Shown in pieces: positions 1,682 through 29,203 of a stretch of 64,000 nucleotides of DNA. How positions within the stretch are numbered: the stretch's first letter is position 1; each line of letters opens with the position of its first letter. The notes beneath the pieces were generated by a model that was not told the origin of the DNA, did no database searches, and was given only the letters and a program-made list of their open reading frames with translations. The position numbers and the translations under genes are program-made. This DNA is from Escherichia phage vB_EcoM_IME392, in the sequence record MH719082.1. One strand, 5' to 3'.

Positions 1682-1713
1682 TTTAACAGCCTTTCAAGAC
1701 CCTAAAAGAGCGG
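1682..1713 (-). promoter_or_regulatory. Conserved promoter-like element (copy 1) upstream of kinase gene
   Basis: Plus-strand TTTAACAGCCTTTCAAGACCCTAAAAGAGCGG. On the transcribed strand this reads ...GGCTGTTAAAATG, an extended -10-like TGnTAAAAT, about 20 nt before the RBS. Confidence 0.5.
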
Positions 1714-1739
1714 ACTAAAAAGGCTGGTGTAAATGTGAA

Positions 1740-2711
1740 CTAGCTAAACTTATACCAGCGAGGTCTCATACGGATCTCGTGATTCAGTTTATGTAGTTTC
1801 GAGAATTCGCAGAATGAGTTGGTGAACATCTGACGAGTATAGAACCGCTCATCCTCCGGCATGAAGTGGAACCATTTCTCCGGCTCCCATGCATACCCGA
1901 AATGAGCACATATCTCTTTGATGTTCTGATACCACCATTCCACGAACATCTGGTAGCCGCAAGGAGGGTTCTGGTCATTAAGCATGTACCATACCCCATC
2001 CTGCGTCCCGGGTCCACATACGATAGCATCGTTATCTGTGTACGCAGTCTCTTTAGAGTAGGACATAGTTGCCCAGCATTGATATGCCATGAACGGACCT
2101 AATCCAGATACCTGTAACAGATGCTCGATGGCCTCGGTAGCGAACGGAGACTTCCATGCCAGTAAGATAGGATCACTGTAGGTCTTCACCAGATAGGCTC
2201 TGGCAGCTACACTGTACTTAATATCCTCTGGACATACTTCATTAGCCATCTTAACTGCTGTGCTAAGGAAGTAGGCATTTGATTGCTGTGGAGCAGTGAA
2301 CGGAGGACCATCCTCATAACGACGTAGCTCTTCACGACCCATGTTATGTATGTCGTCATAGCTCATCTCATAAAGAGGAAGGACTCTGCGGAAGCGATCC
2401 ATATATGAATCACCACGGTTTATCATCTGGAAGAGTACCACGTTAAGCGCCTTACTCTCCCAGCTTAGGGAATCGTTCTCCAGAATGTTCTTGATAGCCC
2501 ATACTGTTTCACGATCGTGCTTACGGAACACGTTAGTGAATTTAAACTTACTAATCCACTTATGTTCTGTCCACGGAGGAGGTAGCTTAAGTATCTCCTT
2601 CTTATAATAAACCTCAGTCCGCTCGCGGTTATACTCCACATACTCACGTAGCTCCTCGGGATTTATCATCCCGAGTAACCCGTCGAAGTGCAAACCTAAC
2701 GGTTTAGACAT
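1740..2711 (-). CDS. Hypothetical protein of the DNA-modification module (323 aa, Trp/Tyr-rich)
   Basis: ORF with an upstream promoter-like element and an RBS. Its position lies between the kinase and the BGT-like gene. No motif is recognised by eye. Confidence 0.45.
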   Translation of the reverse strand: MSKPLGLHFDGLLGMINPEELREYVEYNRERTEVYYKKEILKLPPPWTEHKWISKFKFTNVFRKHDRETVWAIKNILENDSLSWESKALNVVLFQMINRGDSYMDRFRRVLPLYEMSYDDIHNMGREELRRYEDGPPFTAPQQSNAYFLSTAVKMANEVCPEDIKYSVAARAYLVKTYSDPILLAWKSPFATEAIEHLLQVSGLGPFMAYQCWATMSYSKETAYTDNDAIVCGPGTQDGVWYMLNDQNPPCGYQMFVEWWYQNIKEICAHFGYAWEPEKWFHFMPEDERFYTRQMFTNSFCEFSKLHKLNHEIRMRPRWYKFS

Positions 2712-3790
2712 TAAAGAATACCTTCTTTGGTAAAGTAGTCTATTACTTCATCCTGAAGTTCTTGTGCGTAATCCTTGCGCAGATATAGATTCTCATACTG
2801 ATGTTTCAGCAGAGCATCACGATCTTTCAGTTTCTCTGCAATCTCCGCATTACTGGAGACGATCAGAGGAGCCAGTAGCTCTTCGGGGACGCCGCTCCGG
2901 ATTATTGTTCCAGCAGCATCTTTATCCACCAGCATCAGAGTACCAGAGCTCAGGTATTCGTAATAACGGTTAGGTGGGCTGGTATAGAACGAATTACTGG
3001 AGTTCCAGTCTTCGATAAGCAGTACCGCTGCATATTTAGCCACTTCATCCAGCATCTCTGACAGCTTAAACTTAGGCAGCCAGTTAATCGGAGCAGCAGG
3101 TCCCAGCCACTTACGTTCTTTAGGATCCAGCTCTTCCCAGTTTTCCTGCTCGTAGCCGTCAAATCCTGCAAGACCACCAGTATGTTTAGCGATGGACATC
3201 TGAGCTTTGTAGCTCGGCACCGACATAAACAGTTCCAGACCATCTTGCTGGGAGAAGTACTGAGTGAACTTATGGAAGCGGCCTTCACGAGCAGCACCGT
3301 AATACAGCAGGCTATTGTCCGGCTTATCTGACGATCCATAGCGAGGCTTACGACCAGGAACGTAGGTAAGACGGTTCCAGTTAATGTGATGATAGTTCTC
3401 TTCGCTAGGAGAATACTGATTACCCCAGGAAGTACGTTCAAATGCTGCTACAACTTTAAATACAGTAGCTGCGGTGATGTGTCTCCACTGCGGACCCTGG
3501 ATACGCATCTTAGACGAGTAATCCTGTCCAATCCAGTAGAACTTAGCTCCGACATCTGCCTGGTCTACCCAGAACTTATACATCTCGTCGCGGAACTTAC
3601 AGAAGGTAGGAACACCATTGATGGCGATAATCACGTCATATTTAGTGCCATCTTCCATAGCCTTAACGAACTTAGGAGTATCGTCCAACAGGTCAGCTTG
3701 AAGTCCGTAGGCTAACCAGGAAGCCAGAGTATTACTGGCAATGATGGATTTATCGCTGCATGGCGAAAAGTTAGTTACTGCAATCTTCAT
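2711..3790 (-). CDS. DNA beta-glucosyltransferase-like glycosyltransferase (T4 BGT-like, GT-B)
   Basis: N-term MKIAVTNF resembles T4 beta-gt MKIAIINMG. LLYYGAAREGRFHK matches T4 BGT DVIYGGSFRSGQRE. AVLLIEDWNSSNSFYTSPPNRYYEYLSSGTLMLVD matches BGT ALIIGDKNYNDNFITLRVWETMASDAVMLID. Length is 359 aa, against 351 aa for T4 BGT. RBS GGAGAAATTAAACATG. Confidence 0.6.
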   Translation of the reverse strand: MKIAVTNFSPCSDKSIIASNTLASWLAYGLQADLLDDTPKFVKAMEDGTKYDVIIAINGVPTFCKFRDEMYKFWVDQADVGAKFYWIGQDYSSKMRIQGPQWRHITAATVFKVVAAFERTSWGNQYSPSEENYHHINWNRLTYVPGRKPRYGSSDKPDNSLLYYGAAREGRFHKFTQYFSQQDGLELFMSVPSYKAQMSIAKHTGGLAGFDGYEQENWEELDPKERKWLGPAAPINWLPKFKLSEMLDEVAKYAAVLLIEDWNSSNSFYTSPPNRYYEYLSSGTLMLVDKDAAGTIIRSGVPEELLAPLIVSSNAEIAEKLKDRDALLKHQYENLYLRKDYAQELQDEVIDYFTKEGIL

Positions 3791-3815
3791 GTTTAATTTC
3801 TCCGTAGGCTGTCAC

Positions 3816-3848
3816 AATTTAACAGCCTTTTAGCTCATCAAAGAAGCG
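3816..3848 (-). promoter_or_regulatory. Conserved promoter-like element (copy 2) upstream of BGT-like gene
   Basis: CAATTTAACAGCCTTTTAGCTCATCAAAGAAGCG. Overlaps the 3' end of the GT2 gene. Confidence 0.5.
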
Positions 3849-4872
3849 AGTTAGCTGATGCCCAGCTCAGCCAGTTATCGTTGAGATCGGTCAGGTAGGA
3901 GTAATCCTTATTCAGACCGAATACAGTACGGTTAGTTCCGTCGAACTTCATTATACCAGCGCCAGGAGCTCTGATGATTGCATCTTCCGTAGCCAGACAA
4001 TATTCTTTCAAGTATTCCTGGATGTTGGGACGAATACGACGGAAGGAACTATCTGCCGAGTCATAGTGGAACATATCTGCGCAGTGCCACTGTACGTAGG
4101 ATTTATCCGGACGGCTGAGTAGTTCATTACGGGTAACCATATCTTTAGGAGAATATCCCAGCTTAGCTACAGTGACTTCGTGAATACCTCCACCATTAGA
4201 CGAAGTATCCATCAGCCAGTTTTCGTCCCAGTAGAACGAAGTACCAGTACCAGTTACCTGTCCAACCTTCCAGCCCATCGCCATACCTTTAAACAACAGG
4301 TAGCAATCTTCTCCTACGGTCAACTGTTGGAAGGTTATATCGAACAGCCAGAACATCTTCTCACTGGTCTTGACCATGATACCGAGGTCAGTGGCCGGAG
4401 CAGTGTTATTATGTGACTGACGATCGCATAGTTCAACAATCTTGTAGTTACGATTCTTGAAGCTACGGACGAACGCCATCTCAAACTCAGATCCCTCGAA
4501 GTCTATAACGGAACGGTCCAGATGGAAAATATTATCTGCGAACCAGACATCATCATCCACGAAGTAGCAGATGTCTGGACACCAGTTCTGATCCTCCATT
4601 AAAATCCATGCCTTATCAAGAGCATGAGCTCGGATTCTTCCGATTACCGGATTATCGTACTTAGGACGATGCCAGAAATTAAACTGCTCGTCCCCACCGA
4701 ACTGCTCTTCCAGAACTGCCTTATCTTCTTCGGAGGCATCCTGCATAAAGTAGAAGAAACGATACTCGATAGAGTCGTCAGTCTTCTTAGCATCTTTGAA
4801 CGACTGAATCTGACGGAGTACCGACTTCATACGATGATAGGTTGGGATGATAAAAGCCACTTTGGTAGTCAT
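3838..4872 (-). CDS. Family-2 glycosyltransferase (GT-A fold)
   Basis: N-terminal VAFIIPTYHR (GT2 IIPTYN-type motif) and DXD motif YFVDDDVWF. Confidence 0.65.
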   Translation of the reverse strand: MTTKVAFIIPTYHRMKSVLRQIQSFKDAKKTDDSIEYRFFYFMQDASEEDKAVLEEQFGGDEQFNFWHRPKYDNPVIGRIRAHALDKAWILMEDQNWCPDICYFVDDDVWFADNIFHLDRSVIDFEGSEFEMAFVRSFKNRNYKIVELCDRQSHNNTAPATDLGIMVKTSEKMFWLFDITFQQLTVGEDCYLLFKGMAMGWKVGQVTGTGTSFYWDENWLMDTSSNGGGIHEVTVAKLGYSPKDMVTRNELLSRPDKSYVQWHCADMFHYDSADSSFRRIRPNIQEYLKEYCLATEDAIIRAPGAGIMKFDGTNRTVFGLNKDYSYLTDLNDNWLSWASANSLL

Positions 4873-4878
4873 ATTTAT

Positions 4879-5490: not shown

Positions 5491-5496
5491 TATTAA

Positions 5497-5532
5497 TCCT
5501 CGCTACACAAAAATGGGGTTAGGCCGTAGAGA
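5497..5532 (-). terminator. Hairpin + T-run (minus strand) between BCCT and PIG-L genes
   Basis: Minus strand: GGGGTTAGG-TCTCTACGG-CCTAACCCC followed by ATTTTTGTG. Confidence 0.5.
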
Positions 5533-5553
5533 CCTAACCCCGTACGCCTCTGA

Positions 5554-5588
5554 CACCTTAACAGCCTTTTAGGTCATCAAACAGGAGG
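5554..5588 (-). promoter_or_regulatory. Conserved promoter-like element (copy 3) upstream of PIG-L gene
   Basis: CACCTTAACAGCCTTTTAGGTCATCAAACAGGAGG. A hairpin/terminator follows at 5497..5532. Confidence 0.45.
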
Positions 5589-6959
5589 AGTTTCCTTAGC
5601 CAAGAATACTTTAGGTACAAAGATCTTGAGGAACCCGAATAGAATACACAATACCCCAATCAGTACCGGAACAGCCGATACAGCTACCAGAGTCTTCGTT
5701 ACAGTTACTACGTCACCACCTGCCCAGTTAAGTGCAGCAGCAACTACACCCATGCTTACAATCCAGAATACACGAGTTCTAGGAGCGGTCATGGACTCTA
5801 CCGTAATACCTGCTGAGTCATGACCTGTAATAAAGAACAGAATCACAGACACGAGGGTAATTACTGAGAATATCCATCCGCCTGGGAAATTAGCCAGAAG
5901 CTGGAAGATATCCTGAGCACCATGTTGCAAACCGGCTACACCGAATACGGTAAACCATACGTTACTGATAATGGTAGGGAACAGTACACATCCCAGGATC
6001 AGTTCGCGAATAGTACGGCCGTAAGAGATACGTGCCACAAACGCTCCGACGAATAATGCCCAACCTACCCAGGCTGCATAGTAAGCATAAGGCCAGCTAG
6101 CCAGCCATTGCTTCTCTTCAGCAGTACTGCCAATGTTTACCGACATAGGAATAATCTGGAGCAGATAGCTGCCAGAATAGGTGATGGTCTTCCAGAGGTA
6201 TTCAAAGAATGTACCACTTACAGCAACGAATGCCATAATAGATAGAGCTACGATTACATTATATCTGGATAACCACTTAACCCCACGATCGACACCAGTT
6301 ACGGCACTAAGTACAGTGCCCAGAGTCAGGAGTGCGATAATGGTGTAAGGACCAACATCCACACCAAGGAACTCTTTAAATCCAGAACTGATCGGGCCTA
6401 CTGCGTAGACGAACGACAGGGTTAAGCCTATGATGGTCGAGAAGAGTAAGCTTATCGTATTAAGGTTATTCAGAGTTCGGGACTTGAATAACTGATTAAG
6501 CGGACGGTCTTCACCACGTACATGCAGTAAGTACCCGAATGCCACCCCTACGACTGCATACACAGCCCATGCATTAAGTCCCCAGTCAAAGAAGGTAGTT
6601 ACCATATTCTGACGTTCGGACATACCCTCCTGATGATGGTACATAGGTTCGAGTACGCCATAATAAATCATGGATACACCCATACCGGTACTAAACATCA
6701 TAGAGTAATAGGTAAAGCGATTGTATTTCGGAGTACCTTTACCCAGCTTAATGTTACCATGTTTGCTGAATACAAAGAATGCCAGGAACGCCAGGAAGAT
6801 CAGCGAAGACCAGGTAAATATGAATCCATACTGAGATATAAATACAGACTTACTCCAGTCCATTACAGCACCAAACTGGGTGGGAGCAAACATAATGGCG
6901 AGTACAATACCCACCGTTACCAGCACCGTCCCCCAGGTAACTACCTTTGAATCGGACAT
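5577..6959 (-). CDS. BCCT-family (betaine/carnitine/choline) secondary transporter
   Basis: 460-aa polytopic membrane protein. N-terminal FSKHGNIKLG motif and the BCCT signature WPYAYYAAWVGWALFVGAFVARISYGRTIREL (cf. W..FYWAWW.SW.PFVG.FIARIS.GRTIRE). Confidence 0.85.
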   Translation of the reverse strand: MSDSKVVTWGTVLVTVGIVLAIMFAPTQFGAVMDWSKSVFISQYGFIFTWSSLIFLAFLAFFVFSKHGNIKLGKGTPKYNRFTYYSMMFSTGMGVSMIYYGVLEPMYHHQEGMSERQNMVTTFFDWGLNAWAVYAVVGVAFGYLLHVRGEDRPLNQLFKSRTLNNLNTISLLFSTIIGLTLSFVYAVGPISSGFKEFLGVDVGPYTIIALLTLGTVLSAVTGVDRGVKWLSRYNVIVALSIMAFVAVSGTFFEYLWKTITYSGSYLLQIIPMSVNIGSTAEEKQWLASWPYAYYAAWVGWALFVGAFVARISYGRTIRELILGCVLFPTIISNVWFTVFGVAGLQHGAQDIFQLLANFPGGWIFSVITLVSVILFFITGHDSAGITVESMTAPRTRVFWIVSMGVVAAALNWAGGDVVTVTKTLVAVSAVPVLIGVLCILFGFLKIFVPKVFLAKETPPV

Positions 6960-6962
6960 TGA

Positions 6963-7871
6963 TTATTCCTCAATTACGCCCTTAGCGATTAACTGGCGAC
7001 GGACGTATGCGTAGCCAGCAGGTGAAGTAGCGAGGACGATGTCCGCACTACGGAAGTTGGTTTCGATATAGAAGCACTCCTGAAGATCCCGAGTACAGAA
7101 GAGCTCAGTACTCATCATACCCTCGCGTACGTTACATGCATCTGCAACGAATTGCGCAACATCTTCGAAGTGGTCTACCGAATGACTATAGCCGAATCCA
7201 CGGGCATCAGTAGATATAACGTAGTTAGGGCAGTACGGAGTGAAGTCAGTATCTTCGTAGGATTTACCCTGGATAGTGAAGATATCTGCATAGTCCTTGA
7301 ACCCGCTCGGGCTAACCAGAAGATCCCAGGCAACTACCATACCATCGATAACATCTGCCTGAAGTACCAGAGAGGTAGTATATTCGTCCGGTGCCTTATC
7401 GCAGACCAAAATTGGGGAGTCTCCCAGAAGGTCCGACATAGTGCCCGCACCCTTGCCCCCGTGAACACGATCACGGCGTACAAACGCCTCCTGAGGCCTC
7501 TGGTACAGTCTGAACGACGGTACAATCAGCGAATCAGGCAGAGTTCCCAGGTTAGCTTCGGAGCGAAGGCAGGATAATTGGTCAGCTTTAGACCACGTAC
7601 TTTCGATAGCGTGCAGATCGTTACCGATTTTGGTATAGATATAGCTTTCCGGATTACGGCACTTACCCTGATTCAACTCTTCGATAACCGAGTCGAAATA
7701 AGGAAGTCGTACTGATCCCTCACGAGGAGCAGTTAACGCTACTGAGCCATGCTTGGTATGATCCTGATCAACTACCATAACCTGGTCCAGACTTACACCC
7801 ATCTTAAGAATCTGGGATAATGTAGCTGCCGTGTGATTAGTGCAGCCAATCATCAAATCTAACTTCTTCAT
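6963..7871 (-). CDS. Hypothetical protein (302 aa) of the modification module
   Basis: ORF tightly packed between the transporter and the methyltransferase, with a promoter-like element upstream. No confident family assignment. Confidence 0.45.
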   Translation of the reverse strand: MKKLDLMIGCTNHTAATLSQILKMGVSLDQVMVVDQDHTKHGSVALTAPREGSVRLPYFDSVIEELNQGKCRNPESYIYTKIGNDLHAIESTWSKADQLSCLRSEANLGTLPDSLIVPSFRLYQRPQEAFVRRDRVHGGKGAGTMSDLLGDSPILVCDKAPDEYTTSLVLQADVIDGMVVAWDLLVSPSGFKDYADIFTIQGKSYEDTDFTPYCPNYVISTDARGFGYSHSVDHFEDVAQFVADACNVREGMMSTELFCTRDLQECFYIETNFRSADIVLATSPAGYAYVRRQLIAKGVIEE

Positions 7872-7895
7872 TTTAATTCCTCAGTTAACTTGTAC

Positions 7896-7928
7896 AACCT
7901 AACAGCCTTTCGAACCCTAAAAAGAGCG
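7896..7928 (-). promoter_or_regulatory. Conserved promoter-like element (copy 4) upstream of gene 6963..7871
   Basis: ACCTAACAGCCTTTCGAACCCTAAAAAGAGCG. Confidence 0.5.
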
Positions 7929-7972
7929 AAATAATAGATATCTAGCCATCTCGTAAGATGGCTATGTATATA

Positions 7973-8713: not shown

Positions 8714-8736
8714 GTTCTGTCCTCATTAGTTTCGAC

Positions 8737-8770
8737 ACCTTAACAGCCTTTGGAGCCGTAAAAGAAGTGG
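8737..8770 (-). promoter_or_regulatory. Conserved promoter-like element (copy 5) upstream of methyltransferase gene
   Basis: CACCTTAACAGCCTTTGGAGCCGTAAAAGAAGTGG. Preceded, in the direction of transcription, by the terminator at 8781..8812. Confidence 0.5.
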
Positions 8771-8780
8771 TATTGTACAT

Positions 8781-8812
8781 ATTCAAAAATTAGGGTGGCC
8801 GAAGCCACCCTA
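8781..8812 (-). terminator. Rho-independent terminator after topoisomerase medium subunit
   Basis: Minus strand: TAGGGTGGC-UUCG-GCCACCCTA followed by ATTTTTGAAT. Confidence 0.7.
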
Positions 8813-8817
8813 GTTAG

Positions 8818-12053: not shown

Positions 12054-12085
12054 AATTTCTCCGGTCAGGTTTAAATAAGCTCACA

Positions 12086-12120
12086 CAGTTTAACAGCCTT
12101 TGGAGGCCTCAAAGGAGCGG
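12086..12120 (-). promoter_or_regulatory. Conserved promoter-like element (copy 6) upstream of topoisomerase large subunit
   Basis: CAGTTTAACAGCCTTTGGAGGCCTCAAAGGAGCGG. Confidence 0.5.
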
Positions 12121-18103: not shown

Positions 18104-18140
18104 TGCCCTCTGACACCTTAACAGCCTTTCGACCCTCCAA
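18104..18140 (-). promoter_or_regulatory. Conserved promoter-like element (copy 7) upstream of SSB-like gene
   Basis: CACCTTAACAGCCTTTCGACCCTCCAAAAGAGCGGCG. Confidence 0.5.
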
Positions 18141-18152
18141 AAGAGCGGCGGA

Positions 18153-19417: not shown

Positions 19418-19420
19418 ATA

Positions 19421-21138: not shown

Positions 21139-22779
21139 CTATTTGCGAAATGATACCTTAGCGTGACTGATTACTTTCAGTCTACTTTTAATAGTTTCCA
21201 TCTTGGACTTCATCTGCTTATTCAGCATATAGTTATGCTTATCGAAGAAGAGTCCTACCTTAACTGCATCACCACGAGCCGAACGACCGATCGTCTGAAT
21301 TACGCTCTTGTATGACTTACCAGTTAATGGTATAATAGAATCTAAGTTAGGGATGTCGATCCCTTCGGTACCTACGGATGTAGTAATCAGCACTTTGAAT
21401 GCTAAATCCTGAGCTAGTTCCTTGAGTTCATCAAGTCCCAACCCATCCGCTTCGCCTACAGGTGTCCAAACTACCGAACTCGAGAAGAATACAGTATCAA
21501 TTCCAATAGCATTCAGATTCTTAGCGATCTGAACACCATCCTCGACCTGCACCATCGGGATATAGGTTATTCCTTTACCACCGAATACTTCATTATAGGT
21601 TCGTTTAATAGCCTCAGCAGTCATCATGCTACCCATATGCAGGTACAAACTACCTAACATATACTCGGGTCGCTCTTTCTGATACTTGGCAATAACAGAT
21701 CTGTCTTCTGACATCTCAACCAGTATTTCTGTCAACTCTACCGGAACAGGTAGGTCGTGCTCAATAATGGATGGTCCGCAATATGCTAATACAGCCATCC
21801 CTTTACTTGATGCTCCGAACTTAAATCCTTCTACGAGTAAACTGACGCCTTCCAGAGAATCTCCGGTAGCCGTAGTTCCCCAGATATACTCGGGATCAAT
21901 TAGTTCGGTAAGTCTCTGCCAACCAGATGCAGAGAAGTGGTGAGCCTCGTCGGCTATAATACAGTTTACCTGTTTAAAGAACTCGGCATACTCACCTTTC
22001 TTGTATTTATTAGTTCTCTGGAGTCCAGCAGGATTAATAACGTTAATCGGGCTATTTACATCCAGATCCCACGGAATAGTTACCCCGTACTTCTCAGCAC
22101 GTAGAATAATCTCTTCCTTAACTCTGTTAGCGAAAGTATAGATTAGTACTTTCTCTGTCAGACCCGCTTCCAGTACAGATTCGGCAGTACCGATCAGCAG
22201 TTCTGTCTTACCAGCACCGGTATATAAGCCAATAATTCCGAACTTAGAGTGGCAGATAGCATCTGCTGCACTCATCTGAATTTTACCCTTCTCTGGCTTA
22301 GGGTGATTCTGATAGATATCTATCCATTTCTGGCTAAAGTTAAATGCTGGATCTTCCAGACTATTATCGAACTGGGTAGGATCATCAGCAGTAGCGAACG
22401 CTGTAGCTCCTGGAATTACATCAGCTCCAGAGTTAATCAGCTGATATAACATCTGACCGACGCCTAATTGGCAGTTAACCTCTCCAGAGAATAGACTCGT
22501 ATATTTAATTTCTTTACGAGTCGGTAACATTCTCTTCATCCGCCAATTGTATTCCATAACATCTTCGATGGCGGTAGCGAACATGTGAATCTGTTTCAGA
22601 GCTTCCTGATCGTCAGCCGTGATCTTGCACAGCATACGAGGCTCGCGAGTAAAATGTACATTGTACGTTTTACCTACAGACTCGTTCTTAATCTTGGCCA
22701 GTTCCATGCGGATAGCTTTAGACACATCCGGATTTACTTTAGCCTTCTTACCTACAAGATCCTCTAGCTTTACAGACAT
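21139..22779 (-). CDS. SF2 DEAD/DEAH-box helicase (UvsW-like)
   Basis: Motif I TGAGKTE, motif II IIADEAHHF, motif III TATGD. Confidence 0.65.
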   Translation of the reverse strand: MSVKLEDLVGKKAKVNPDVSKAIRMELAKIKNESVGKTYNVHFTREPRMLCKITADDQEALKQIHMFATAIEDVMEYNWRMKRMLPTRKEIKYTSLFSGEVNCQLGVGQMLYQLINSGADVIPGATAFATADDPTQFDNSLEDPAFNFSQKWIDIYQNHPKPEKGKIQMSAADAICHSKFGIIGLYTGAGKTELLIGTAESVLEAGLTEKVLIYTFANRVKEEIILRAEKYGVTIPWDLDVNSPINVINPAGLQRTNKYKKGEYAEFFKQVNCIIADEAHHFSASGWQRLTELIDPEYIWGTTATGDSLEGVSLLVEGFKFGASSKGMAVLAYCGPSIIEHDLPVPVELTEILVEMSEDRSVIAKYQKERPEYMLGSLYLHMGSMMTAEAIKRTYNEVFGGKGITYIPMVQVEDGVQIAKNLNAIGIDTVFFSSSVVWTPVGEADGLGLDELKELAQDLAFKVLITTSVGTEGIDIPNLDSIIPLTGKSYKSVIQTIGRSARGDAVKVGLFFDKHNYMLNKQMKSKMETIKSRLKVISHAKVSFRK

Positions 22780-22781
22780 AA

Positions 22782-23300
22782 TTACTCCTCTTTACTCTGG
22801 TAAAGTAACTGGATATCTGCCGAGTTCTCGACATATTCCTGAGCTATTCGAATAGCTCTAACGACCATAGCCTTCTCTCCCCAGCTTAGGAATTCTGGGG
22901 TAGCAGCCATCTTAACTACTAACTCGCGAGAAAGATCTTCGATACACTTAATCTTGTTCGAGACCTTAGGGAACGCAAGTCTATTATTAATAGTTATACG
23001 ATCAGCAGGAATCTGGGTGAAGGTCTCGCTGAATAGTCTATCGAAATCTCCGATATTTAATTCAGTGAAATAACCCTTACCCTCTTCTGTATCGAATATA
23101 CCATGAACAACTACTTCTTGTCGAATAGATACATTTAGTAAGTACTTCGAGTTCAACAAGATAACGTAGATGCTCGAATAGCTCCGAAGATCTCGTTTCC
23201 ATGCTGATAGGGACTCAGTAGGTGATCCCTTGTATTCTACTCCCGAATTCAGAAGCATCTTACAAAATGGGTCTAGGCTGTTAATTACTACAGTACTCAT
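22782..23300 (-). CDS. Hypothetical protein (start likely ATG 23300 with RBS GAGGAGAATACA)
   Basis: ORF. The first in-frame start is GTG at 23321; ATG at 23300 has a strong RBS. Promoter-like element immediately upstream. Confidence 0.45.
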   Translation of the reverse strand: MSTVVINSLDPFCKMLLNSGVEYKGSPTESLSAWKRDLRSYSSIYVILLNSKYLLNVSIRQEVVVHGIFDTEEGKGYFTELNIGDFDRLFSETFTQIPADRITINNRLAFPKVSNKIKCIEDLSRELVVKMAATPEFLSWGEKAMVVRAIRIAQEYVENSADIQLLYQSKEE

Positions 23301-23321
23301 TGTATTCTCCTCACGTGCCAC

Positions 23322-23354
23322 AGTTTAACAGCCTTTCGACGCTAATTAAAGGTG
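23322..23354 (-). promoter_or_regulatory. Conserved promoter-like element (copy 8) upstream of gene 22782..23300
   Basis: CAGTTTAACAGCCTTTCGACGCTAATTAAAGGTGG. Confidence 0.45.
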
Positions 23355-23696
23355 GTCTTTAACAGTTCCCAGGATAGCTTCTCTGGTGTGGATTAGGCCA
23401 GATCGATTAATCTCTACTTTGGTGGTAGTCACCATTTCGAATACTTCCAGCTCAATACCAGGATGAGCCATGCATGTATGAATCAATACAGACAGAGCAT
23501 CATCATAGCTGGGATAACCAGTGGCATATTTATGATTGTCGTTCCACAGGCGGTCGGTTGCATGCCTGCGTTCGCTGATGTAAGATATCTTACCTTCTTT
23601 CATCCGGCCTACATAATACTTAGCTTCGGAATTATCCGAAATATGTAACGTTTCCATAATTTCTCCTAATGGGGAGTTTTTACCTCCCCCGAGCAA
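23346..23696 (-). CDS. Hypothetical protein
   Basis: 116-aa ORF. Confidence 0.4.
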   Translation of the reverse strand: MLGGGKNSPLGEIMETLHISDNSEAKYYVGRMKEGKISYISERRHATDRLWNDNHKYATGYPSYDDALSVLIHTCMAHPGIELEVFEMVTTTKVEINRSGLIHTREAILGTVKDHL

Positions 23697-23701
23697 AGGT
23701 A

Positions 23702-23947
23702 TTAGAATGGGCTATGACGAGATTCCGTTACTTGCAGACCGGAGAGGATCTGACCGATAAAGTCATAGCTTACACCATCTTCTACAGATGTAATCTTAAC
23801 TTCATTGGTATTTTCGATCTTCTGGCCAGTTGCCAGTAATCCGTTAGGGAGGACGACGCCTACGAATTCACGAGTATCGACTGGCTTACGAAAGTGCTTC
23901 TTAGCTGGTTTCTTATGTCTCATGAACGGATTGTTATTATAAGGCAT
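23702..23947 (-). CDS. Hypothetical small basic protein
   Basis: 81-aa ORF. Confidence 0.35.
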   Translation of the reverse strand: MPYNNNPFMRHKKPAKKHFRKPVDTREFVGVVLPNGLLATGQKIENTNEVKITSVEDGVSYDFIGQILSGLQVTESRHSPF

Positions 23948-24254
23948 TGTCTGATTCCCCTTTTATAGTATGATCTTTGAAAACTCTTAAACTATACGGA
24001 TTCTCTATTTCTTCGAACTGTAGACCATCAAAGCCATGTATCATATTCACATAGTTCATACTATACATAGTAATTCTGATTTGCCAGATCGTCGAATTAG
24101 AGGACTTACGAAATACTCTACACGGCTCACTAACTACAGCACCCTTAATCTTCCCAAGTTCCCTGAGAATACCAGTTATGTCCTCGATCTCGCAGAACGA
24201 TTGAAAGATGCGGGATGGACATCGTCTTATGGGACTAACGTCTGAACCATACAT
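23937..24254 (-). CDS. Hypothetical protein
   Basis: 105-aa ORF downstream of a promoter-like element. Confidence 0.35.
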   Translation of the reverse strand: MYGSDVSPIRRCPSRIFQSFCEIEDITGILRELGKIKGAVVSEPCRVFRKSSNSTIWQIRITMYSMNYVNMIHGFDGLQFEEIENPYSLRVFKDHTIKGESDNAL

Positions 24255-24304
24255 AATTTTACATAATAGGTAAGTTGGACACAGAAGGACGCAGTCACGC
24301 CTCC

Positions 24305-24340
24305 ACCGTTTTAACAGCCTTTTAGGTCATTAAAACGGCG
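24305..24340 (-). promoter_or_regulatory. Conserved promoter-like element (copy 9) embedded in a hairpin, upstream of gene 23937..24254
   Basis: CCGTTTTAA-CAGCCTTTTAGGTCA-TTAAAACGG. The core is flanked by a 9-bp inverted repeat. Confidence 0.45.
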
Positions 24341-24348
24341 GAGTTCAA

Positions 24349-25140
24349 TCAGTACCGAGGATCAGTATCCTGATAGTCGCGAATTAGGTCATAGACGAGC
24401 ACATCCAGACGAGTAGCATCTTCACGTTTCATGCGGGTAGGTCTGTACATATGGATACATACACAATGCTTAGACCAGACCTTAGCAGTCTGACGCTCCG
24501 TAAGTTCTTTACGGTCGATAATGTACTTCTCGAATGCGTGATAAGAGATAGGCTTTGATACTTCGACATGCTGGCACATATCGAGGAACTGCGGGTAGTC
24601 GTCAGTTAAGAAGCGACTGAATACGTCCTGGTAATAAGAGTAGTTAGGGAATTTACCACCCTGCTCCAGAGATAACGCATGAGTCTCGATCTCCTTCAAC
24701 ATCAGAGCCATAAATTCCTGATTATTGCTGGGAGAGGTCCACATGTTTATCTCGCAGTAATCTAACCGAGGGGAATAAACACGTACCTGAGTCTCGTGAG
24801 GAGTATACGTTTCGTGAGGGCTTCTGATAAAGAGAGTATCAGCATCTACATAGGAGTAACCACGAAGATCCATCATTACCTGAATCTTGAGTCGCAGATA
24901 GTCACATACAGAGGCCATCTTAGCCTTAGTTTTCAGGATATTATACGCCTTCTCCATAATAGGATCTCTGGCGAATAAATCCTGGATCATAACGCAACGG
25001 CAACCTTCGATAATATTCTCTTCGTTATCGATCACCAGTACATGATCATTAGGTCCGTATTTCTGTAAGGACTTAATGCATTCCCGAACATGGATAGGCA
25101 TTTTGGGTCCTACCCAAAGCTGGAAATAATTCTGACTCAT
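24349..25140 (-). CDS. Glycosyltransferase with DXD sugar-binding region (GT32 / Gly_transf_sug-like)
   Basis: N-terminal FQLWVGPKMP (cf. IHQIWIG). DYLRLKIQVMMDLRGYSYVDADTLF matches the D..R..L...GG.Y.D.D region. Confidence 0.5.
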   Translation of the reverse strand: MSQNYFQLWVGPKMPIHVRECIKSLQKYGPNDHVLVIDNEENIIEGCRCVMIQDLFARDPIMEKAYNILKTKAKMASVCDYLRLKIQVMMDLRGYSYVDADTLFIRSPHETYTPHETQVRVYSPRLDYCEINMWTSPSNNQEFMALMLKEIETHALSLEQGGKFPNYSYYQDVFSRFLTDDYPQFLDMCQHVEVSKPISYHAFEKYIIDRKELTERQTAKVWSKHCVCIHMYRPTRMKREDATRLDVLVYDLIRDYQDTDPRY

Positions 25141-25771
25141 AGTTACCTCTATGTTATTTATTTTAAACTGGATAGGGACTAATAAAGTAAATAGTAATTA
25201 AATACTTATTAATCTTCCTCTTATCTAATGCTAAGGGAAGCGTACTCGAGGAGTACAGAAGCTTAGCGAAGAGCGGAGTAACCATTTGATTTAAACAGTC
25301 ACCGTAGAGAGCGAAGGAGTCGCGCCCGCTTGAGGCGGCGCGACCTCCGCTTCACCAATCCTACCGGATGGACGCCTGCGACCACCCGAGCCTACCCCTG
25401 CCTCACTCACTAAAGCCACTTCGGGCTTTACCTCGTTCCGCTACGCGATACGCAGGCAGATAGCTACACTAAGTCCCCTGGAGATGGCTAGTAAGTATCC
25501 GTTACCAGACCATGTCCAACCTAACATTGACGAAGCCAGGGACTAGGCACTCCTCGCCAATAAGCTACATTAGGATTTATGTCCGTATTTCGAAGATAGG
25601 CCGATCGGGGAGACTATGCATTCATCTCTGCTCAACCAGGAAGCACCGATTAGGGTAAATACCCAAACTATCTTCTTAATGTCACTCCTCCCAGACCGCT
25701 TCGGGACTTAGCTTAAGTCTTATCCGAATAATCTGGCATCTACGACGGACCGTAGTGTATGGAGCGTACTG

Positions 25772-25806
25772 CAATTTAACAGCCTTTTGACTCATCAAAA
25801 GAGCGT
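25772..25806 (-). promoter_or_regulatory. Conserved promoter-like element (copy 10) upstream of a non-coding region (25200..25770)
   Basis: CAATTTAACAGCCTTTTGACTCATCAAAAGAGCG. Perfect dyad CTTTTGA-CTCA-TCAAAAG. No ORF lies downstream on the minus strand for about 570 nt. Confidence 0.5.
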
Positions 25807-25924
25807 AATTAGGGCCCGATTATTTCACTTAGCTTCCATCCGTTCGGGCCAACACGGATCGTACATGACGTTACCGTCGTTTCAAGTCACTCGGATTATT
25901 AGTTCCCGGTGCTCATATAAAGAT

Positions 25925-26004
25925 GGTGCCACGTAGGGAATCGAACCCTATATCAGGTAAACGTCTAGCCGTAGACTGCTGAGTGCCCTCAGCTACCCTA
26001 TCAC
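25925..26004 (-). ncRNA. tRNA-like element (T-arm TAGGG-TTCGATT-CCCTA plus CCA-like end), not foldable into a canonical cloverleaf
   Basis: GGGAATCGAACCC on the plus strand. The reverse complement ends ...CCCTACGTGGCACCA, but no complementary 5' acceptor strand was found. Two tight hairpins lie upstream. Confidence 0.3.
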
Positions 26005-26104
26005 TTAACCGAACCATCGGCAAATCTTTCACAGATACTTACACGTGATTTTCTCTGATCGGATCTGGTGATTCCTCGGAGTCGAACCGAGGAGTGGCAT
26101 AATA

Positions 26105-26180
26105 TGGTGGTCCATACTGGTTTCGAACCAGTGACCAAGCGATTATGAGTCGCCTGCTCTCACCACTGAGCTAATGGACC
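26105..26180 (-). tRNA. tRNA-Met (anticodon CAT; elongator type or Ile2-lysidine type)
   Basis: Reverse complement folds as a cloverleaf: acceptor GGTCCAT/ATGGACC, D arm GCTC-AGTGGTGA-GAGC, anticodon stem GGCGA/TCGCT with loop CTCATAA, T arm ACTGG-TTCGAAA-CCAGT, discriminator A, encoded CCA. Confidence 0.8.
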
Positions 26181-26190
26181 GAACTAGATT

Positions 26191-26280
26191 GAGCGATAGG
26201 CTATGGAGTACCTTACCATCGGGCGTCTTTCGCTAAATAGCCCATCATGGGCTACCGCAGGGGCATGACACCTATCGCTC
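26191..26280 (-). ncRNA. Stem-closed structured element (about 90 nt) immediately 5' of tRNA-Met
   Basis: 10-bp closing helix GAGCGATAGG / CCTATCGCTC, with an internal perfect hairpin TAGCCCA-TCA-TGGGCTA. No canonical T-loop, so not a standard tRNA. Confidence 0.35.
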
Positions 26281-26649
26281 AAATTGGTCGGGATCGTGGC
26301 CCACGTCGGAGGATTTGCCAAACTCCCCATTATCATAGCCTAAGCTATCCAGACGGCCGTAACTACCCTGCTCCGGTACATGCGATAATGGGGACGTATC
26401 CAAAGATGTGGAGATCCCGTTAAAATATCTTAAGCTTCTCGCTATGTGTGTCCTACACTCTACCCTTGCGGGGTACCGGAGGATGAATCCGAACTTCCTG
26501 CGACCACACACGGAGGCCCTTGCAGACGTGCTTTATTGCGCTCATCCTGGCATAGCGAGAACTTAAGATATCTATTGATGCGCACCAGATAAGTATTTCC
26601 CAAGCCATGAACTTAATCTGGGATCTTGACCTATCCAGTGCGACTTATG

Positions 26650-26725
26650 TGGTACTCCCTACTGGATTCGAACCAGTGACCGTCGGTTTAGAAGACCGAT
26701 GCTCTATCCTCTGAGCTAAGGGAGC
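26650..26725 (-). tRNA. tRNA-Arg (anticodon TCT)
   Basis: Reverse complement: acceptor GCTCCCT/AGGGAGT (G1-U72), D arm GCTC-AGAGGATA-GAGC, anticodon stem TCGGT/ACCGA with loop CTTCTAA, T arm ACTGG-TTCGAAT-CCAGT, CCA encoded. Confidence 0.8.
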
Positions 26726-26735
26726 TTAACTTTAG

Positions 26736-26802
26736 GATGACCTCTTAGCTTACCATCGCGAAAGCTACATGGAGTGTAGTTAACGTGAACTAAGAGGTCA
26801 TC
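26736..26802 (-). ncRNA. Stem-closed structured element (about 67 nt) immediately 5' of tRNA-Arg
   Basis: 13-bp closing helix GATGACCTCTTAG / CTAAGAGGTCATC, with an internal hairpin CTACA-CTCCA-TGTAG. Confidence 0.35.
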
Positions 26803-27297
26803 ATAAAATCAGTTACTGACGAATTATACTTTCCCAACCATCCACATATACTGCGTTGGCTATGTAAAGAATGCAGAACAAGCCAACGATTAAAGGATTA
26901 ATCATTGTACTTCTCCATTTAATTAAGTTACCTGCTTACTGTTACAGGGACGCCGTTCGTCGCGCCAGATTACCAATTGGCGTATTAAGCCAATCTCGCC
27001 AACCGCGTAACGCCATTGGCTGGTATCACATAGGCTTGTAGCCCTCAGTCAACCTATCCTGAGGATGAAGATCAGATACTCTCTAACGGCGGGATTGATA
27101 GTCCCAGAGTACGATCTCTTTGCCATTCTCGTATGACCTAGGAGACGACTGCCCTGGTTAAGGAGACCAGACAGCTGATATGGTTTAGTTTATTTTTAAT
27201 TTGAGTCCCACTCATACCTTACAGACTCAAGCACTGCAGACCACCATGAAGCCGACTCGTACGCTAACAGTCGACACCACGGATCCATGAAACTCCA

Positions 27298-27340
27298 ACA
27301 ATTTAACAGCCTTTCGACTCATCAAAAGAGTGTTAAATTG
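27298..27340 (-). promoter_or_regulatory. Conserved promoter-like element (copy 11) upstream of the structured non-coding region 26736..27290 and tRNA-Arg
   Basis: CAATTTAACA-GCCTTTCGACTCATCAAAAGAG-TGTTAAATTG. The core is enclosed by a 10-bp inverted repeat and is nearly identical to copy 10. Confidence 0.5.
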
Positions 27341-27481
27341 TCCGCTCCCTATCACCGAGCACTGTGATGATGGGAAAATAGGGAGCGAAGCGATTCCTAA
27401 GTTTTATCTCTTCTCTAAGTGATTAACCGTTACATACGATGTACCTTCTCGAAAGAATTAAGCCGGTATTGGCACTTCAGA

Positions 27482-27517
27482 CACTTTAACAGCCTTTCGA
27501 CCGTACAAAAGAGCGGC
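27482..27517 (-). promoter_or_regulatory. Conserved promoter-like element (copy 12)
   Basis: CACTTTAACAGCCTTTCGACCGTACAAAAGAGCGGCG, the consensus copy. A small hairpin RNA region (27336..27385) lies downstream. Confidence 0.45.
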
Positions 27518-27521
27518 GTAA

Positions 27522-28064
27522 TTAGACGCTCGCCTCAGGCACTTTAACAGCCTTTGGACGTGTAAAAAGAGCGGGATTATACCATTCTGGGGTACGATAG
27601 AAAGAGATCTTACGACCCTCTTTCTTCCAGAAGTAGAATTTATCGTTGAGGTAGTTACGGTACTTCTCGTAGACTGTCTCACCAGGAGCACCTGATACAC
27701 ATGCATACGGAGTCATATCGGTCTCTGGACCTACTACCAGATTTTTAGGTAGTGCCACAAGACGGGATAAAATTTCTTCGGTTGCATGGAGCCGTCCGGT
27801 ACGTTCAAAGAATAGCATGCATAAATAGCTTGCCAAGTCACGAACGAAGTTGTAGTTACCTGACGATTCACGAACCCACTTAGCACACGGATGATTAACA
27901 TGCGTCTGCTTATAAATACCCTCGATAGCGTTTTCGCCATCCAGAACATGATGAGCAGTAGATAATAACTGAGCACACTCAATAATCATTTTATTCTGGT
28001 GCATAGGCATACAGTGGTCCATAGCACATTCTAACGCATCTTCGTGAGTACGGAAAATATTCAC
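27522..28064 (-). CDS. Pyrimidine-dimer DNA glycosylase (T4 DenV / endonuclease V-like)
   Basis: Pyr_excise-like segment LSTAHHV...THVNHPCAKWVRESSGNY and C-terminal ...YRTPEWY (T4 denV ends RPTWYKYYG). Confidence 0.45.
   Translation of the reverse strand: MNIFRTHEDALECAMDHCMPMHQNKMIIECAQLLSTAHHVLDGENAIEGIYKQTHVNHPCAKWVRESSGNYNFVRDLASYLCMLFFERTGRLHATEEILSRLVALPKNLVVGPETDMTPYACVSGAPGETVYEKYRNYLNDKFYFWKKEGRKISFYRTPEWYNPALFTRPKAVKVPEASV
27540..27574 (-). promoter_or_regulatory. Conserved promoter-like element (copy 13), tandem with copy 12 and inside the 3' end of the DenV-like ORF
   Basis: CACTTTAACAGCCTTTGGACGTGTAAAAAGAGCGG. Confidence 0.4.
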
Positions 28065-28144
28065 AATAATTACTCCTAACGTGGTTGCTTACTTTAAGTC
28101 TCTCGTGAAAGATTTAGAGTAAGCATCGGAGGAATTACCTCCGA

Positions 28145-28179
28145 CACTTTAACAGCCTTTCGACGGCACAAAAGAGCGG
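28145..28179 (-). promoter_or_regulatory. Conserved promoter-like element (copy 14) upstream of DenV-like gene
   Basis: CACTTTAACAGCCTTTCGACGGCACAAAAGAGCGG. Confidence 0.5.
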
Positions 28180-28181
28180 TT

Positions 28182-28340
28182 TTAAATTTTACATGCATCT
28201 CCGCAGTCGTCGTCACCAGGCTGGCTGATAACTTCGTCTACGTTAACCATGCGATCTTCTACACGACGAGATGCCTCGTCTAATTCTTCCTGAGATGGGA
28301 GATTGGAGAAATCCAATTCTTCACCAGATTTATTGCCTGA
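28182..28340 (-). CDS. Small acidic hypothetical protein
   Basis: Part of ORF 28182..28388, with an internal start MSGNKSGEE. Overlaps the end of the upstream gene. Weak. Confidence 0.25.
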   Translation of the reverse strand, partial: SGNKSGEELDFSNLPSQEELDEASRRVEDRMVNVDEVISQPGDDDCGDACKI

Positions 28341-28812
28341 CATAATCACTCCACACGTTAATAACTTCTTTACCACAGGATTTAGCATAGGCTACACAGT
28401 TACCTGTGCCACCCGAACTACCATCCCATAGGGCTAATCCCATCTGACTACGGTTAACCATGTATCGGTTACGCACCATCATCTTGAAGGAATCATACCC
28501 AGGCTCGGACACTATAATTGTGCGACGACTTTTTCTGCATAGCTCAGTCCATTTTTCTGTATCTGCAGATCGCCACATTTTGGGTTGGTCAATCATAGGG
28601 ATTGTTGCAAAGTATGGTATTCCGAGATTGGCACATGCCTGAGCACATGCCATATCCCATCCTAACGCCATACCTATAAACCAGCAGTCCACGCTATTCT
28701 TAGCTGTAAGCTCCTGGATGTGATGTTCGGCAAACTGGGTAAGATGATCATGGCTAAAGTTATCCCATCCACCCAGCTTATCTGGCCTATGACCAGTCAC
28801 GAACATAAACAT
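28330..28812 (-). CDS. Hypothetical protein, possibly a SLOG/YpsA-like nucleotide-binding domain
   Basis: N-terminal MFMFVTGHRPDKLGG and a Gly-rich segment DGSSGGTGNCVAYA. The assignment is by pattern only. Confidence 0.3.
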   Translation of the reverse strand: MFMFVTGHRPDKLGGWDNFSHDHLTQFAEHHIQELTAKNSVDCWFIGMALGWDMACAQACANLGIPYFATIPMIDQPKMWRSADTEKWTELCRKSRRTIIVSEPGYDSFKMMVRNRYMVNRSQMGLALWDGSSGGTGNCVAYAKSCGKEVINVWSDYVRQ

Positions 28813-29153
28813 TACTTCTTGCCCATCTTAGCCTGCATAGCACGGACGGTATCCATGGCGCTGGCCAATTTGGCTGAAGTATCCTGCGGACCATCTTCTT
28901 CTAGCTGTTTCTTAAGGGACTCCATACGATCAGTAGTACCCTTAGTATCCATCTCGATTAATTCGTTGATGGTCGAACCACCCACGTTAGGTAACTTACC
29001 CAGCTGAGTAAGATCCTTAACTTCTGGGATTTTAACATGAAGTTGAATAGACTGGGATGCTCTCGCGAACGACCCAGCACGACGATTGTCTCCTACCTTA
29101 TTGTACAGGGAAGATAGGTTACCCAGGAACGTAATGATATCAGCAGTTTTCAT
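28812..29153 (-). CDS. Hypothetical protein (start MKTADIITF with RBS GGAGGA)
   Basis: ORF 28812..29195, trimmed to ATG 29153 preceded by GGAGGAATCAAAT. Promoter-like element at 29170..29203 is upstream. Confidence 0.45.
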   Translation of the reverse strand: MKTADIITFLGNLSSLYNKVGDNRRAGSFARASQSIQLHVKIPEVKDLTQLGKLPNVGGSTINELIEMDTKGTTDRMESLKKQLEEDGPQDTSAKLASAMDTVRAMQAKMGKK

Positions 29154-29169
29154 ATTTGATTCCTCCAAC

Positions 29170-29203
29170 AAGTTAACAGCCTTTCGACCGTACAAAAGAG
29201 CGG
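29170..29203 (-). promoter_or_regulatory. Conserved promoter-like element (copy 15) at the divergent early/late junction, upstream of gene 28812..29153
   Basis: AGTTAACAGCCTTTCGACCGTACAAAAGAGCGG. Confidence 0.5.

Follow-up and report, generated by a model that had tools for sequence, protein, structure and literature searches.

A strand-specific motif, probably a promoter, upstream of the non-structural genes of Escherichia phage vB_EcoM_IME392

We analyzed a stretch of 64,000 nucleotides from Escherichia phage vB_EcoM_IME392 (MH719082.1), hereafter called the window. The window contains fifteen copies of an element of 36 bases, all on one strand and just 5′ of genes. This element is probably the promoter of the non-structural arm of the genome (probability about 0.8). 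We lean towards the view, which is unproven, that its use would require a phage-encoded component in addition to the reading of a sigma-70-type −10 region. The window shares 94% identity with Escherichia phage EP_H11 (111 kb). Its minus arm carries genes for a protein with a 5-hydroxymethyl-deoxyuridine (5-hmdU) DNA kinase domain, a type II topoisomerase, an SbcCD-like nuclease, helicases, an exonuclease and a transporter of the betaine/choline/carnitine family (BCCT), and its plus arm is a T4-like structural module.

A discrete motif ahead of the minus-strand genes

A search for the core AAAGGCTGTTAA with at most one mismatch gave 15 sites in the window, all on the minus strand, against a chance expectation of 0.24. 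In 100 shuffles, the maximum count was 2. The full 35-nt consensus with up to three mismatches gave 9 matches, whereas 0.00 were expected. From the alignment of the 15 copies, the consensus CCGCTCTTTTG-N5-TCGAAAGGCTGTTAAnnTGT was obtained, often with GGAGG next to it. A position weight matrix built from these sites holds about 41 bits. When both strands were scanned with the matrix, the same 15 sites appeared at 47–66 bits, and everything else stayed at 12 bits or less. Since the matrix recovers only the 15 minus-strand sites, they form a discrete and strictly strand-specific set. Conservation between the copies ends about 40 nt out, and the flanks beyond differ. This marks the element as a short motif rather than an extended repeat.

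A preliminary description of this DNA had counted fifteen copies between 1682 and 29203. Both the number and the span were borne out by the core positions, which run from 1694 to 29184 (each given as the plus-strand coordinate of the core's first base). The same description had stated that equal occurrence on both strands, in coding regions, would point to a repeat; what was found instead is occurrence on one strand only, in intergenic DNA or at the ends of open reading frames (ORFs). We conclude that the motif is genuine, forms a discrete set and keeps strictly to one orientation.

Every copy either occupies a gap between minus-strand ORFs or covers only the 3′ end or the last codons of the upstream ORF. 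At seven copies, the distance from the hexamer TAAnnT to the start codon is 16–33 nt. Three copies (27555, 27497 and 27314) face a non-coding stretch of 2.3 kb. The copy at 29184 is the head of the entire minus arm. It is located in a 97-bp divergent region opposite the first structural gene, and no gene on the same strand lies upstream of it. Placement ahead of the minus-strand units, those with tRNA and non-coding RNA included, had been described before, and it agrees with a phage-specific promoter class for the minus (non-structural) arm that takes in the tRNA and non-coding unit. For the spacing to the ribosome-binding site, 15–30 nt had been given; the measured values are 3–25 nt. The copies and the two recognised RNAs are as follows.

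29168..29203, minus strand: copy 1, core 29184; 56.7 bits; ATG 16 nt past the TAACTT hexamer
28144..28179, minus strand: copy 2, core 28160; 66.4 bits; perfect match to the consensus; GGAGGTAATTCCTCC hairpin next
27539..27574, minus strand: copy 3, core 27555; within the last codons of ORF 27522–28064; first of three copies toward the tRNA/non-coding region
27481..27516, minus strand: copy 4, core 27497; perfect match; on a 58-bp insertion that EP_H11 lacks (promoter duplication, if the element is a promoter)
27298..27333, minus strand: copy 5, core 27314; upstream of tRNA-Arg (26650–26725); within a 21-bp near-perfect palindrome CAATTTAACA...TGTTAAATTG
25771..25806, minus strand: copy 6, core 25787; sole copy with a perfect CTTTTGA-N4-TCAAAAG; followed by about 640 nt of non-coding DNA and ORF 24349–25140
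24306..24341, minus strand: copy 7, core 24322; hexamer TAAAAC, without the final T; 14-bp inverted repeat formed by the upstream box with the −10 region and the bases past it
23320..23355, minus strand: copy 8, core 23336; degenerate upstream box CCACCTTTAAT; ATG 21 nt past the hexamer
18113..18148, minus strand: copy 9, core 18129; between ORFs 18153–19193 and 17046–18056
12085..12120, minus strand: copy 10, core 12101; upstream of the gene for the topoisomerase II large subunit (10068–12053); homology with EP_H11 starts exactly at the motif
8735..8770, minus strand: copy 11, core 8751; directly past the intrinsic terminator 8791–8812; upstream of a methyltransferase gene
7894..7929, minus strand: copy 12, core 7910 (AAAGGCTGTTAG); hexamer TAGGTT; upstream of ORF 6963–7871
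5553..5588, minus strand: copy 13, core 5569; immediately past the stop codon of the BCCT transporter gene; strong hairpin and T-run next
3814..3849, minus strand: copy 14, core 3830; upstream of ORF 2711–3790; GGCTGT...ACAGCC hairpin across the −10 region
1678..1713, minus strand: copy 15, core 1694; upstream of an AAA_28 ATPase gene (928–1662), past the 5-hmdU DNA kinase gene
26105..26180 and 26650..26725, minus strand: tRNA-Met and tRNA-Arg, the only recognised RNAs of the 2.3-kb non-coding unit fed by copies 3–5

The non-coding unit (25140–27460, minus strand) has no ORFs over 2.3 kb, and its sequence is GC-rich and looks structured. It contains tRNA-like 3′ halves ending in CCA at 25924–25948 and 26066–26088, and ARAGORN at a low threshold gave two odd tRNA-like elements there. 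Rfam at permissive thresholds detected the two tRNAs in this unit and nothing more. The 58-bp insertion at 27481–27538 (minus strand; compared with EP_H11 99116–99180) is specific to the window and leaves two tandem copies of the putative promoter 58 bp apart.

Anatomy and conservation of the element

In a set of 35 distinct copies, conservation reaches at least 90% at T1, A2 and T6 of the hexamer; A predominates at position 3, and positions 4 and 5 vary freely. In the window, 14 of the 15 copies have TAnnnT (A2, T6), with 24322 (TAAAAC) as the exception. TG is found exactly one base 5′ of the hexamer, GCTGTTAA is invariant in the lineage of Escherichia coli phages, and an invariant G follows the hexamer. 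The variation of the hexamer and the TG is the profile of a sigma-70-family extended −10, and the earlier recognition of an extended −10-like segment is upheld. It had also been claimed that conservation exceeds the needs of sigma-70. This was confirmed, as the invariant AAAGGC next to the TG and the box CCGCTCTTTT are not features of sigma-70 promoters.

A canonical −35/−10 arrangement was not found. At the 17-nt spacing stands CTTTTG, which matches TTGACA at 1/6 positions. The −35-like segment TTTTGTAC that had been placed about 17 nt upstream did not survive, because its GTAC belongs to the variable N5 spacer and occurs in 3 copies only, and TTGTAC is 14 nt from the hexamer. A scan for consensus sigma-70 promoters listed none of the 15 motif sites. 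Such promoters are also not enriched in the scanned part, 1–32000 (24 against 27.9 expected and 31 against 30.6). For the late arm, sigma-70-like promoters had been proposed. By eye, this arm offers one good candidate (36483–36512) and one weak candidate (29243–29270), but there is no enrichment in 1–32000. Past the major capsid gene, the plus strand at 36430–36512 carries a strong terminator hairpin (TAGCTACGGCCTC...GAGGCCGTAG and T5). The TTGACA-N18-TAAATT after that terminator is the only good sigma-70-like candidate seen in the structural arm.

Readings of the element by the sigma-54, sigma-28, sigma-32 and sigma-E consensus sequences were rejected by eye, as spacing and bases misfit. The likeness of GCTCTT in the upstream box to GCTGTT in the core, which could be taken as a direct repeat, was treated as a coincidence because the spacing varies by lineage (18, 21 and 24 bp).

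If TAAnnT is numbered −12 to −7, the promoter would consist of an extended −10-like block TG-T-TAAnnT with the invariant G at −6, the invariant lineage-specific block AAAGGC at −21 to −16, and the looser upstream box CCGCTCTTTT at about −40 to −31, which the free 5-nt spacer separates from the rest. A −35 hexamer would be lacking, and transcription would begin a few bases past TGT, often at GGAGG, with predicted leaders of about 9–26 nt.

The complete genome of EP_H11 has 27 copies of the motif, and every one of them is on the strand that carries the 73-kb non-structural arm (from 97487, via the record ends, to 55406). Its structural arm (59678–97324) has zero copies. Thus, the absence of the element from the plus-strand structural arm, as described earlier, holds for the window as well as for EP_H11 as a whole. 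Orthologous motifs of the window and EP_H11 are 94.7% identical, as compared with 85% for the upstream and 91% for the downstream flanks. The differences concentrate in the N5 spacer, which is sometimes block-swapped, and at the two free positions of the hexamer.

Two Logan contigs, L011 (79% protein identity) and L012 (58%), were found by protein search. Each has four intergenic sites with (T)AAAAGGCTGTTAAnnTG unchanged. The upstream half decays in both contigs, for example to GGCTCTTTATTTAAGCTA in L012. At the L012 sites, AAAGGC and its flanking bases are invariant amid completely diverged intergenic DNA. Acinetobacter phage Ab1-TPeters (Ab1), at about 37% identity and with the same genome layout, has about 19 intergenic sites on one strand, AAAA(G/C)CTGTT(T)AAnnTGT, with two types of upstream box. 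The downstream half of the element is therefore invariant to 58% protein identity and recognisable at about 37%.

More distant phages with genes for the β′ subunit of RNA polymerase have motifs of their own. RP13 has a long one-strand intergenic motif, AACGACTCTATAG-N8-aGACCTTGTa (e.g., 12420–12450 and 44255–44290). In Vibrio phage 1.031.O, AACCCCT-N4-GAGTCTT-N3-AACCCCTTTCTTTTGTGG (e.g., 27505–27560) is followed by a conserved TTAATCTATTGGAGAT translation-start region. Neither motif has a conserved TAnnnT. A BLAST search with the 45-nt consensus against 50,697 phage records returned EP_H11 only, plus chance 17-mers, and IMG/VR contained neither motif matches nor relatives of the N-terminal half of β′. 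In the literature, the motif sequence was not found in any paper, and nothing was found on the promoters or polymerase of EP_H11 or IME392. The element belongs to the well-known class of phage-specific promoter consensus elements and is itself undescribed in the literature searched.

We read the element as a promoter because its copies are discrete, on one strand, intergenic, arm-heading, more conserved than their flanks and −10-like in their variation. The general traits of promoters (fixed orientation, intergenic position upstream of genes, and location at the heads of units) are seen in the window and likewise in Ab1, L011 and L012. The genes under this promoter would be those of the non-structural arm, namely replication, recombination, nucleotide- and thymidine-modification genes, tRNAs and small genes.

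Inverted repeats, hairpins and boundaries

The invariant CTTT...AAAG of the element is an inverted repeat. It could be an operator for a dimeric phage regulator, as the preliminary description had suggested, or an extruded hairpin or cruciform promoter as in the early promoters of phage N4, which likewise combine a conserved inverted repeat with a phage-specific promoter. When the 7-bp stem (CTTTTGn / nCRAAAG) was examined in the 35 copies, 79.6% of the cells pair. After shuffling of the partners, however, 77.1% still do. Thus, the dyad is mostly base composition, a T-run facing an A-run. No covariation occurs in the four outer pairs of the stem. In 10–14 of the 35 copies, the three inner pairs are broken. 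Some compensatory changes occur among these pairs (G-C, A-T and G-T at columns 18/25), and they covary faintly (0.185 against 0.149, reached by 2 of 500 shuffles), a level that relatedness alone can give.

Long palindromes are present at 27314 (21 bp), 24322 (14 bp) and 25787 (7 bp, perfect), but their partner segments differ from copy to copy. Of the two copies reported earlier with a perfect CTTTTGA-N4-TCAAAAG, only 25787 has it, since 27314 has one G-T pair. The two copies described as enclosed in 9–10-bp inverted repeats do have enclosing repeats (27314 and 24322), with a length of 10–14 bp. In L012 and in the type-A sites of Ab1, the dyad is gone: the upstream arm is lost or replaced, whereas the downstream half is kept.

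Both N4 and this phage involve a type II topoisomerase, N4 depending on host gyrase and this phage encoding its own enzyme, and the latter can be counted for an extruded structure. The N4 enzyme that reads hairpin promoters is a single-subunit virion RNA polymerase, whereas the polymerase genes present here are of the multisubunit type, and the dyad is statistically weak and not kept in relatives. A conserved stem backed by compensatory changes, as expected of an N4-type hairpin, was not found. The symmetry that led to the proposal of a dimeric regulator is real, but it barely exceeds shuffled pairing and covaries only in the inner pairs. A dimeric operator or hairpin promoter is possible but weakly supported, and we rate it as improbable.

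Two terminator-like structures of the window lie next to copies of the element.

8791..8812, minus strand: intrinsic-terminator-like hairpin; ends 20 nt upstream of copy 11, in the classical order of terminator, then promoter
5515..5541, minus strand: terminator-like hairpin of 11 pairs followed by ATTTTTGTG; wholly downstream of copy 13

At five or six sites, the 5′ arm of a terminator hairpin begins within the core or the −10 region (for example, EP_H11 32906 and 15295, L011 2653, and L012 3006 and 1149). In EP_H11 32906–32960, the core AGGCTGTTAAC is itself the 5′ arm of the terminator (AGGCTGTTAAC-N15-GTTAACAGCCT, then ATTTTTATTT), an overlapping terminator/promoter design. With a hairpin arm inside the motif, RNA reading through from upstream would terminate, and RNA begun at the motif would lack the arm. 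This overlap agrees with initiation shortly past the motif.

Several copies overlap or precede such hairpin-plus-T-run structures. Furthermore, homology between the window and EP_H11 starts or stops exactly at the motif at 12101, 27555 and 29184, and one copy lies on the 58-bp insertion. These observations could mean that the element acts at the RNA level, by marking the 3′ end of the upstream transcript or directing its processing or stability, or that it is a recombination hot spot or cassette boundary. However, upstream of copy 29184 there is nothing that could be terminated or processed, most copies are not accompanied by a terminator, and the invariant part of the element is not the paired part. 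In addition, the constant short distance to the start codon and the −10-like variation are traits of promoters. We consider this explanation highly improbable. The promoter-early stem-loop elements (PeSLs) of T4-type phages are also repeated, promoter-containing elements at the mosaic boundaries of related genomes. PeSLs combine an early promoter for host sigma-70 with a stem-loop, whereas the boundary effect of the present motif looks like a by-product. Recombination at repeated promoters is a known secondary effect, as with PeSLs, and is compatible with a promoter.

Polymerase genes and the reading of the proposed promoter

In EP_H11, β′ is split in two genes (29676–31244 and 26582–28096), as it is in Ab1 (22684–24207 and 62831–64147). 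The EP_H11 halves are clearly of the bacterial type (E 4e-51 to E. coli β′) and keep the zinc-binding cysteines and the three catalytic aspartates. In Ab1 62831–64678, the frame of the N-terminal half stops within the catalytic NADFDGD motif and resumes about 350 nt on, which suggests that the active-site region holds an intervening element (intron, intein or endonuclease).

A protein of about 200 amino acids is encoded beside the β′ genes in all of the lineages listed here (EP_H11 28905–29660, L012 14476–15129, Ab1 62243–62824, RP13 27139–27699 and Vibrio phage 19235–19870). Its gene is immediately upstream of the N-terminal half, except in RP13, where it follows the C-terminal half. By hhalign, this protein has no similarity to sigma factors. 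It is a candidate for a polymerase partner or specificity factor. A 483-amino-acid protein encoded beside the DNA polymerase gene was considered as β or sigma and rejected. Its Pfam match to Rpb2_3 is faint (E 0.089) and is attributed to chance, because only 1 of 25 family members shows it. A profile search of PDB sequences with this family was empty and gave no recognisable fold, and a scan of JGI metagenomes was also empty. Between the DNA polymerase and 483-amino-acid genes, EP_H11 has an ORF of 303 amino acids (22571–23482) with a faint GIY-YIG match. This ORF is not at that place in L011 and L012, and it is probably a homing-endonuclease insertion.

EP_H11 has been grouped with RP13-like phages, which are predicted to have hypermodified thymidine (10.1101/2025.03.26.645540; PMC12686479). 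The window at 1740–2711 (minus strand) gives a clear match to the helical domain of 5-hmdU DNA kinase (PF18723, E 3e-35); L011 and L012 have it too. The kinase is called undetectable in 10.1101/2025.03.26.645540, in a remark made on RP13, with EP_H11 and IME392 named one sentence earlier. At 5577–6959 (minus strand), a full-length BetT-like BCCT transporter (Pfam E 1e-92) is encoded within the thymidine-modification cluster of this lytic phage. The transporter may import a precursor for the base modification.

We favor a phage-encoded component because the positions that are not read by sigma-70 are invariant over deep divergence, the motifs are lineage-specific, and thymidine modification is predicted. 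That distant β′-carrying phages have different long motifs also favors a specificity component encoded by the phage. In the mechanism that we propose, the DNA would be melted by a sigma-70-family-type reading of TAAnnT, and the additional invariant positions would be read by a phage-encoded component, either the split β′ or another partner protein. The polymerase firing at these promoters would be a phage-modified enzyme and not the plain host holoenzyme. Since the β′ genes lie behind the motif, the first round would have to come from host RNA polymerase on the extended −10 alone or from a virion-delivered protein. Polymerase subunits have been reported in the virions of YerA41 (PMC7354516), which suggests one such route. 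The YerA41 virion proteome also reports a 'sigma factor' (PMC7354516). This annotation is absent from the two stretches of the complete record that were covered (60000–145577), and the protein was not usable as a probe.

Several observations weigh against the promoter and the mechanism as proposed. The copy at 24322 has C for the final T of the hexamer, and EP_H11 copy 99298 has G for the critical A. The type-A sites of Ab1 contain an additional T that puts TG and hexamer out of register, an arrangement that a strict extended −10 would not tolerate. The copy at 5569 is followed, inside its own predicted leader, by a complete strong terminator (5541–5515), and this arrangement is kept in EP_H11. 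The β′ operon itself is preceded by the motif (EP_H11 22480); thus, a purely phage-dependent promoter needs a bootstrap step. Searches with E. coli RpoB, with YerA41 β and with a profile built from the two (tblastn and phmmer --max) detected no β in Ab1, EP_H11 or the window. Among the ten ORFs between EP_H11 motif copies 22480 and 32906, Pfam and NCBIfam gave no sigma-like protein. A sigma-family hidden Markov model (HMM) run against all ORFs of the window, EP_H11, Ab1, L011, L012 and a 50-kb stretch of RP13 had a best E value of 0.28, and hhalign comparison of three candidate families with sigma gave a probability of at most 0.3%. A related Vibrio phage carries a sigma-like protein, of which no homologue was found in this phage. 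In a database-wide tblastn search, β was confined to the YerA41, Carin-5, Arash and D69 branches. Thus, the complete phage set of β and β′ was not recovered here, as both halves of β′ are present and β is undetected.

An ordinary host promoter is the simplest alternative. In this case, the E. coli sigma-70 holoenzyme alone would read TGnTAAnnT, and the other conserved bases would reflect a cassette spread by copy-and-paste. Extended −10 promoters function without a −35. The hexamer varies exactly as a sigma-70 −10 does, with TG one base 5′ and G at −6, no phage sigma was found by HMM or hhalign, and host polymerase must read at least some copies first, since the polymerase genes lie behind the motif. 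Moreover, the spacer block swaps between orthologous copies and the 58-bp duplication indicate that copies exchange sequence. However, copy-and-paste cannot explain why AAAGGC and its flanks are invariant at 58% protein identity amid diverged intergenic DNA. An Acinetobacter phage retains the same core, and the TG is displaced by one base in its type-A sites. RP13 and the Vibrio phage have unrelated motifs, although their hosts are under the same sigma-70 rules. In addition, the predicted thymidine hypermodification (10.1101/2025.03.26.645540) would load bulky groups on the very Ts that sigma-70 reads. On balance, we regard a plain host promoter as unlikely, though it stays a serious rival.

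One specific form of the phage-encoded component can be imagined, in which the split β′ would replace host β′ in a host core (β, alpha and omega) that still uses sigma-70. This idea is speculative, and we doubt that it is correct as it stands. Sigma-70 would read TGnTAAnnT, and AAAGGC would be read by the zipper or zinc-binding region of phage β′ or by the protein of about 200 amino acids encoded upstream of its N-terminal half. In work by Yuzenkova et al. in EMBO J in 2011, the host β′ zipper is said to touch spacer DNA at the same place as −21 to −16. At first, the host enzyme would initiate weakly at the extended −10, before being superseded by the hybrid enzyme.

Whichever component is involved, the promoter that we propose resembles several known systems in part. 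Like the T4 middle promoters (MotA box plus sigma-70 −10, with appropriation by AsiA), it has a sigma-70-read TAnnnT without a −35, in many copies on one arm, and a phage-specific upstream box that marks non-late genes (wwwTGCTTtA in T4, aaaCCGCTCTTTT in this phage). A MotA box could not be assigned. aaaCCGCTCTTTT is loosely MotA-like but ends 18 bp from the hexamer, whereas the T4 box lies about 12 bp from it, centred near −30. T4 middle promoters also lack the invariant AAAGGC-TG block directly 5′ of the hexamer, and T4 has no β′ genes, unlike this phage. MotA and AsiA had no Pfam match among 50 proteins (30 of the window and 20 of EP_H11, with the small genes of EP_H11 33–60 kb outside the scan), and an N4-type polymerase was not seen among the Pfam-scanned proteins.

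The extended −10 (TGn) promoters of E. coli share the TG one base before TAnnnT, the dispensable −35 and the discriminator G. However, the phage element has about 20 further conserved positions, and its total of about 41 bits is far above host promoters. The SPO1 promoters that are read by the phage's own sigma factor, gp28 (AGGAGA-N17-TTTnTTT, in hydroxymethyluracil DNA), are similar in their bipartite phage-specific consensus, replication-type genes and modified thymidine, but the sequences are unrelated, and a sigma-family protein is undetected in this phage. As in the multisubunit polymerase systems of phiKZ and AR9/PBS2, a β′-type subunit is split in two genes and motifs are lineage-specific. 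The enzymes of phiKZ and AR9 have diverged strongly and comprise β as well as β′ halves, whereas this phage has a near-bacterial β′ (E 4e-51) and no β was found. The promoters of phiKZ and AR9 are short AT-rich motifs without a sigma-70-like −10.

What the element means depends on its reader. If host sigma-70 alone suffices, it is merely a well-conserved family of extended −10 promoters. If the motif requires the phage β′ or its neighbour, this would be a new way for a virus to retarget the host polymerase, by a swap of a core subunit, and promoter reading on DNA whose thymines carry bulky groups would become testable. Were the hybrid polymerase real, transcription would be redirected to thymidine-hypermodified phage DNA without a phage sigma or β. 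The motif gives a handle on an odd gene set, in which β′ is split and of the bacterial type and β and sigma are undetected. It is also compact and rich in information, and would be a promoter portable across at least Escherichia and Acinetobacter phages. EP_H11, IME392, Ab1-TPeters and the RP13-like phages are little studied; hypermodified thymidine is predicted for them, and they are refractory to ordinary sequencing and PCR. For these phages, the motif provides a map of the transcription units.

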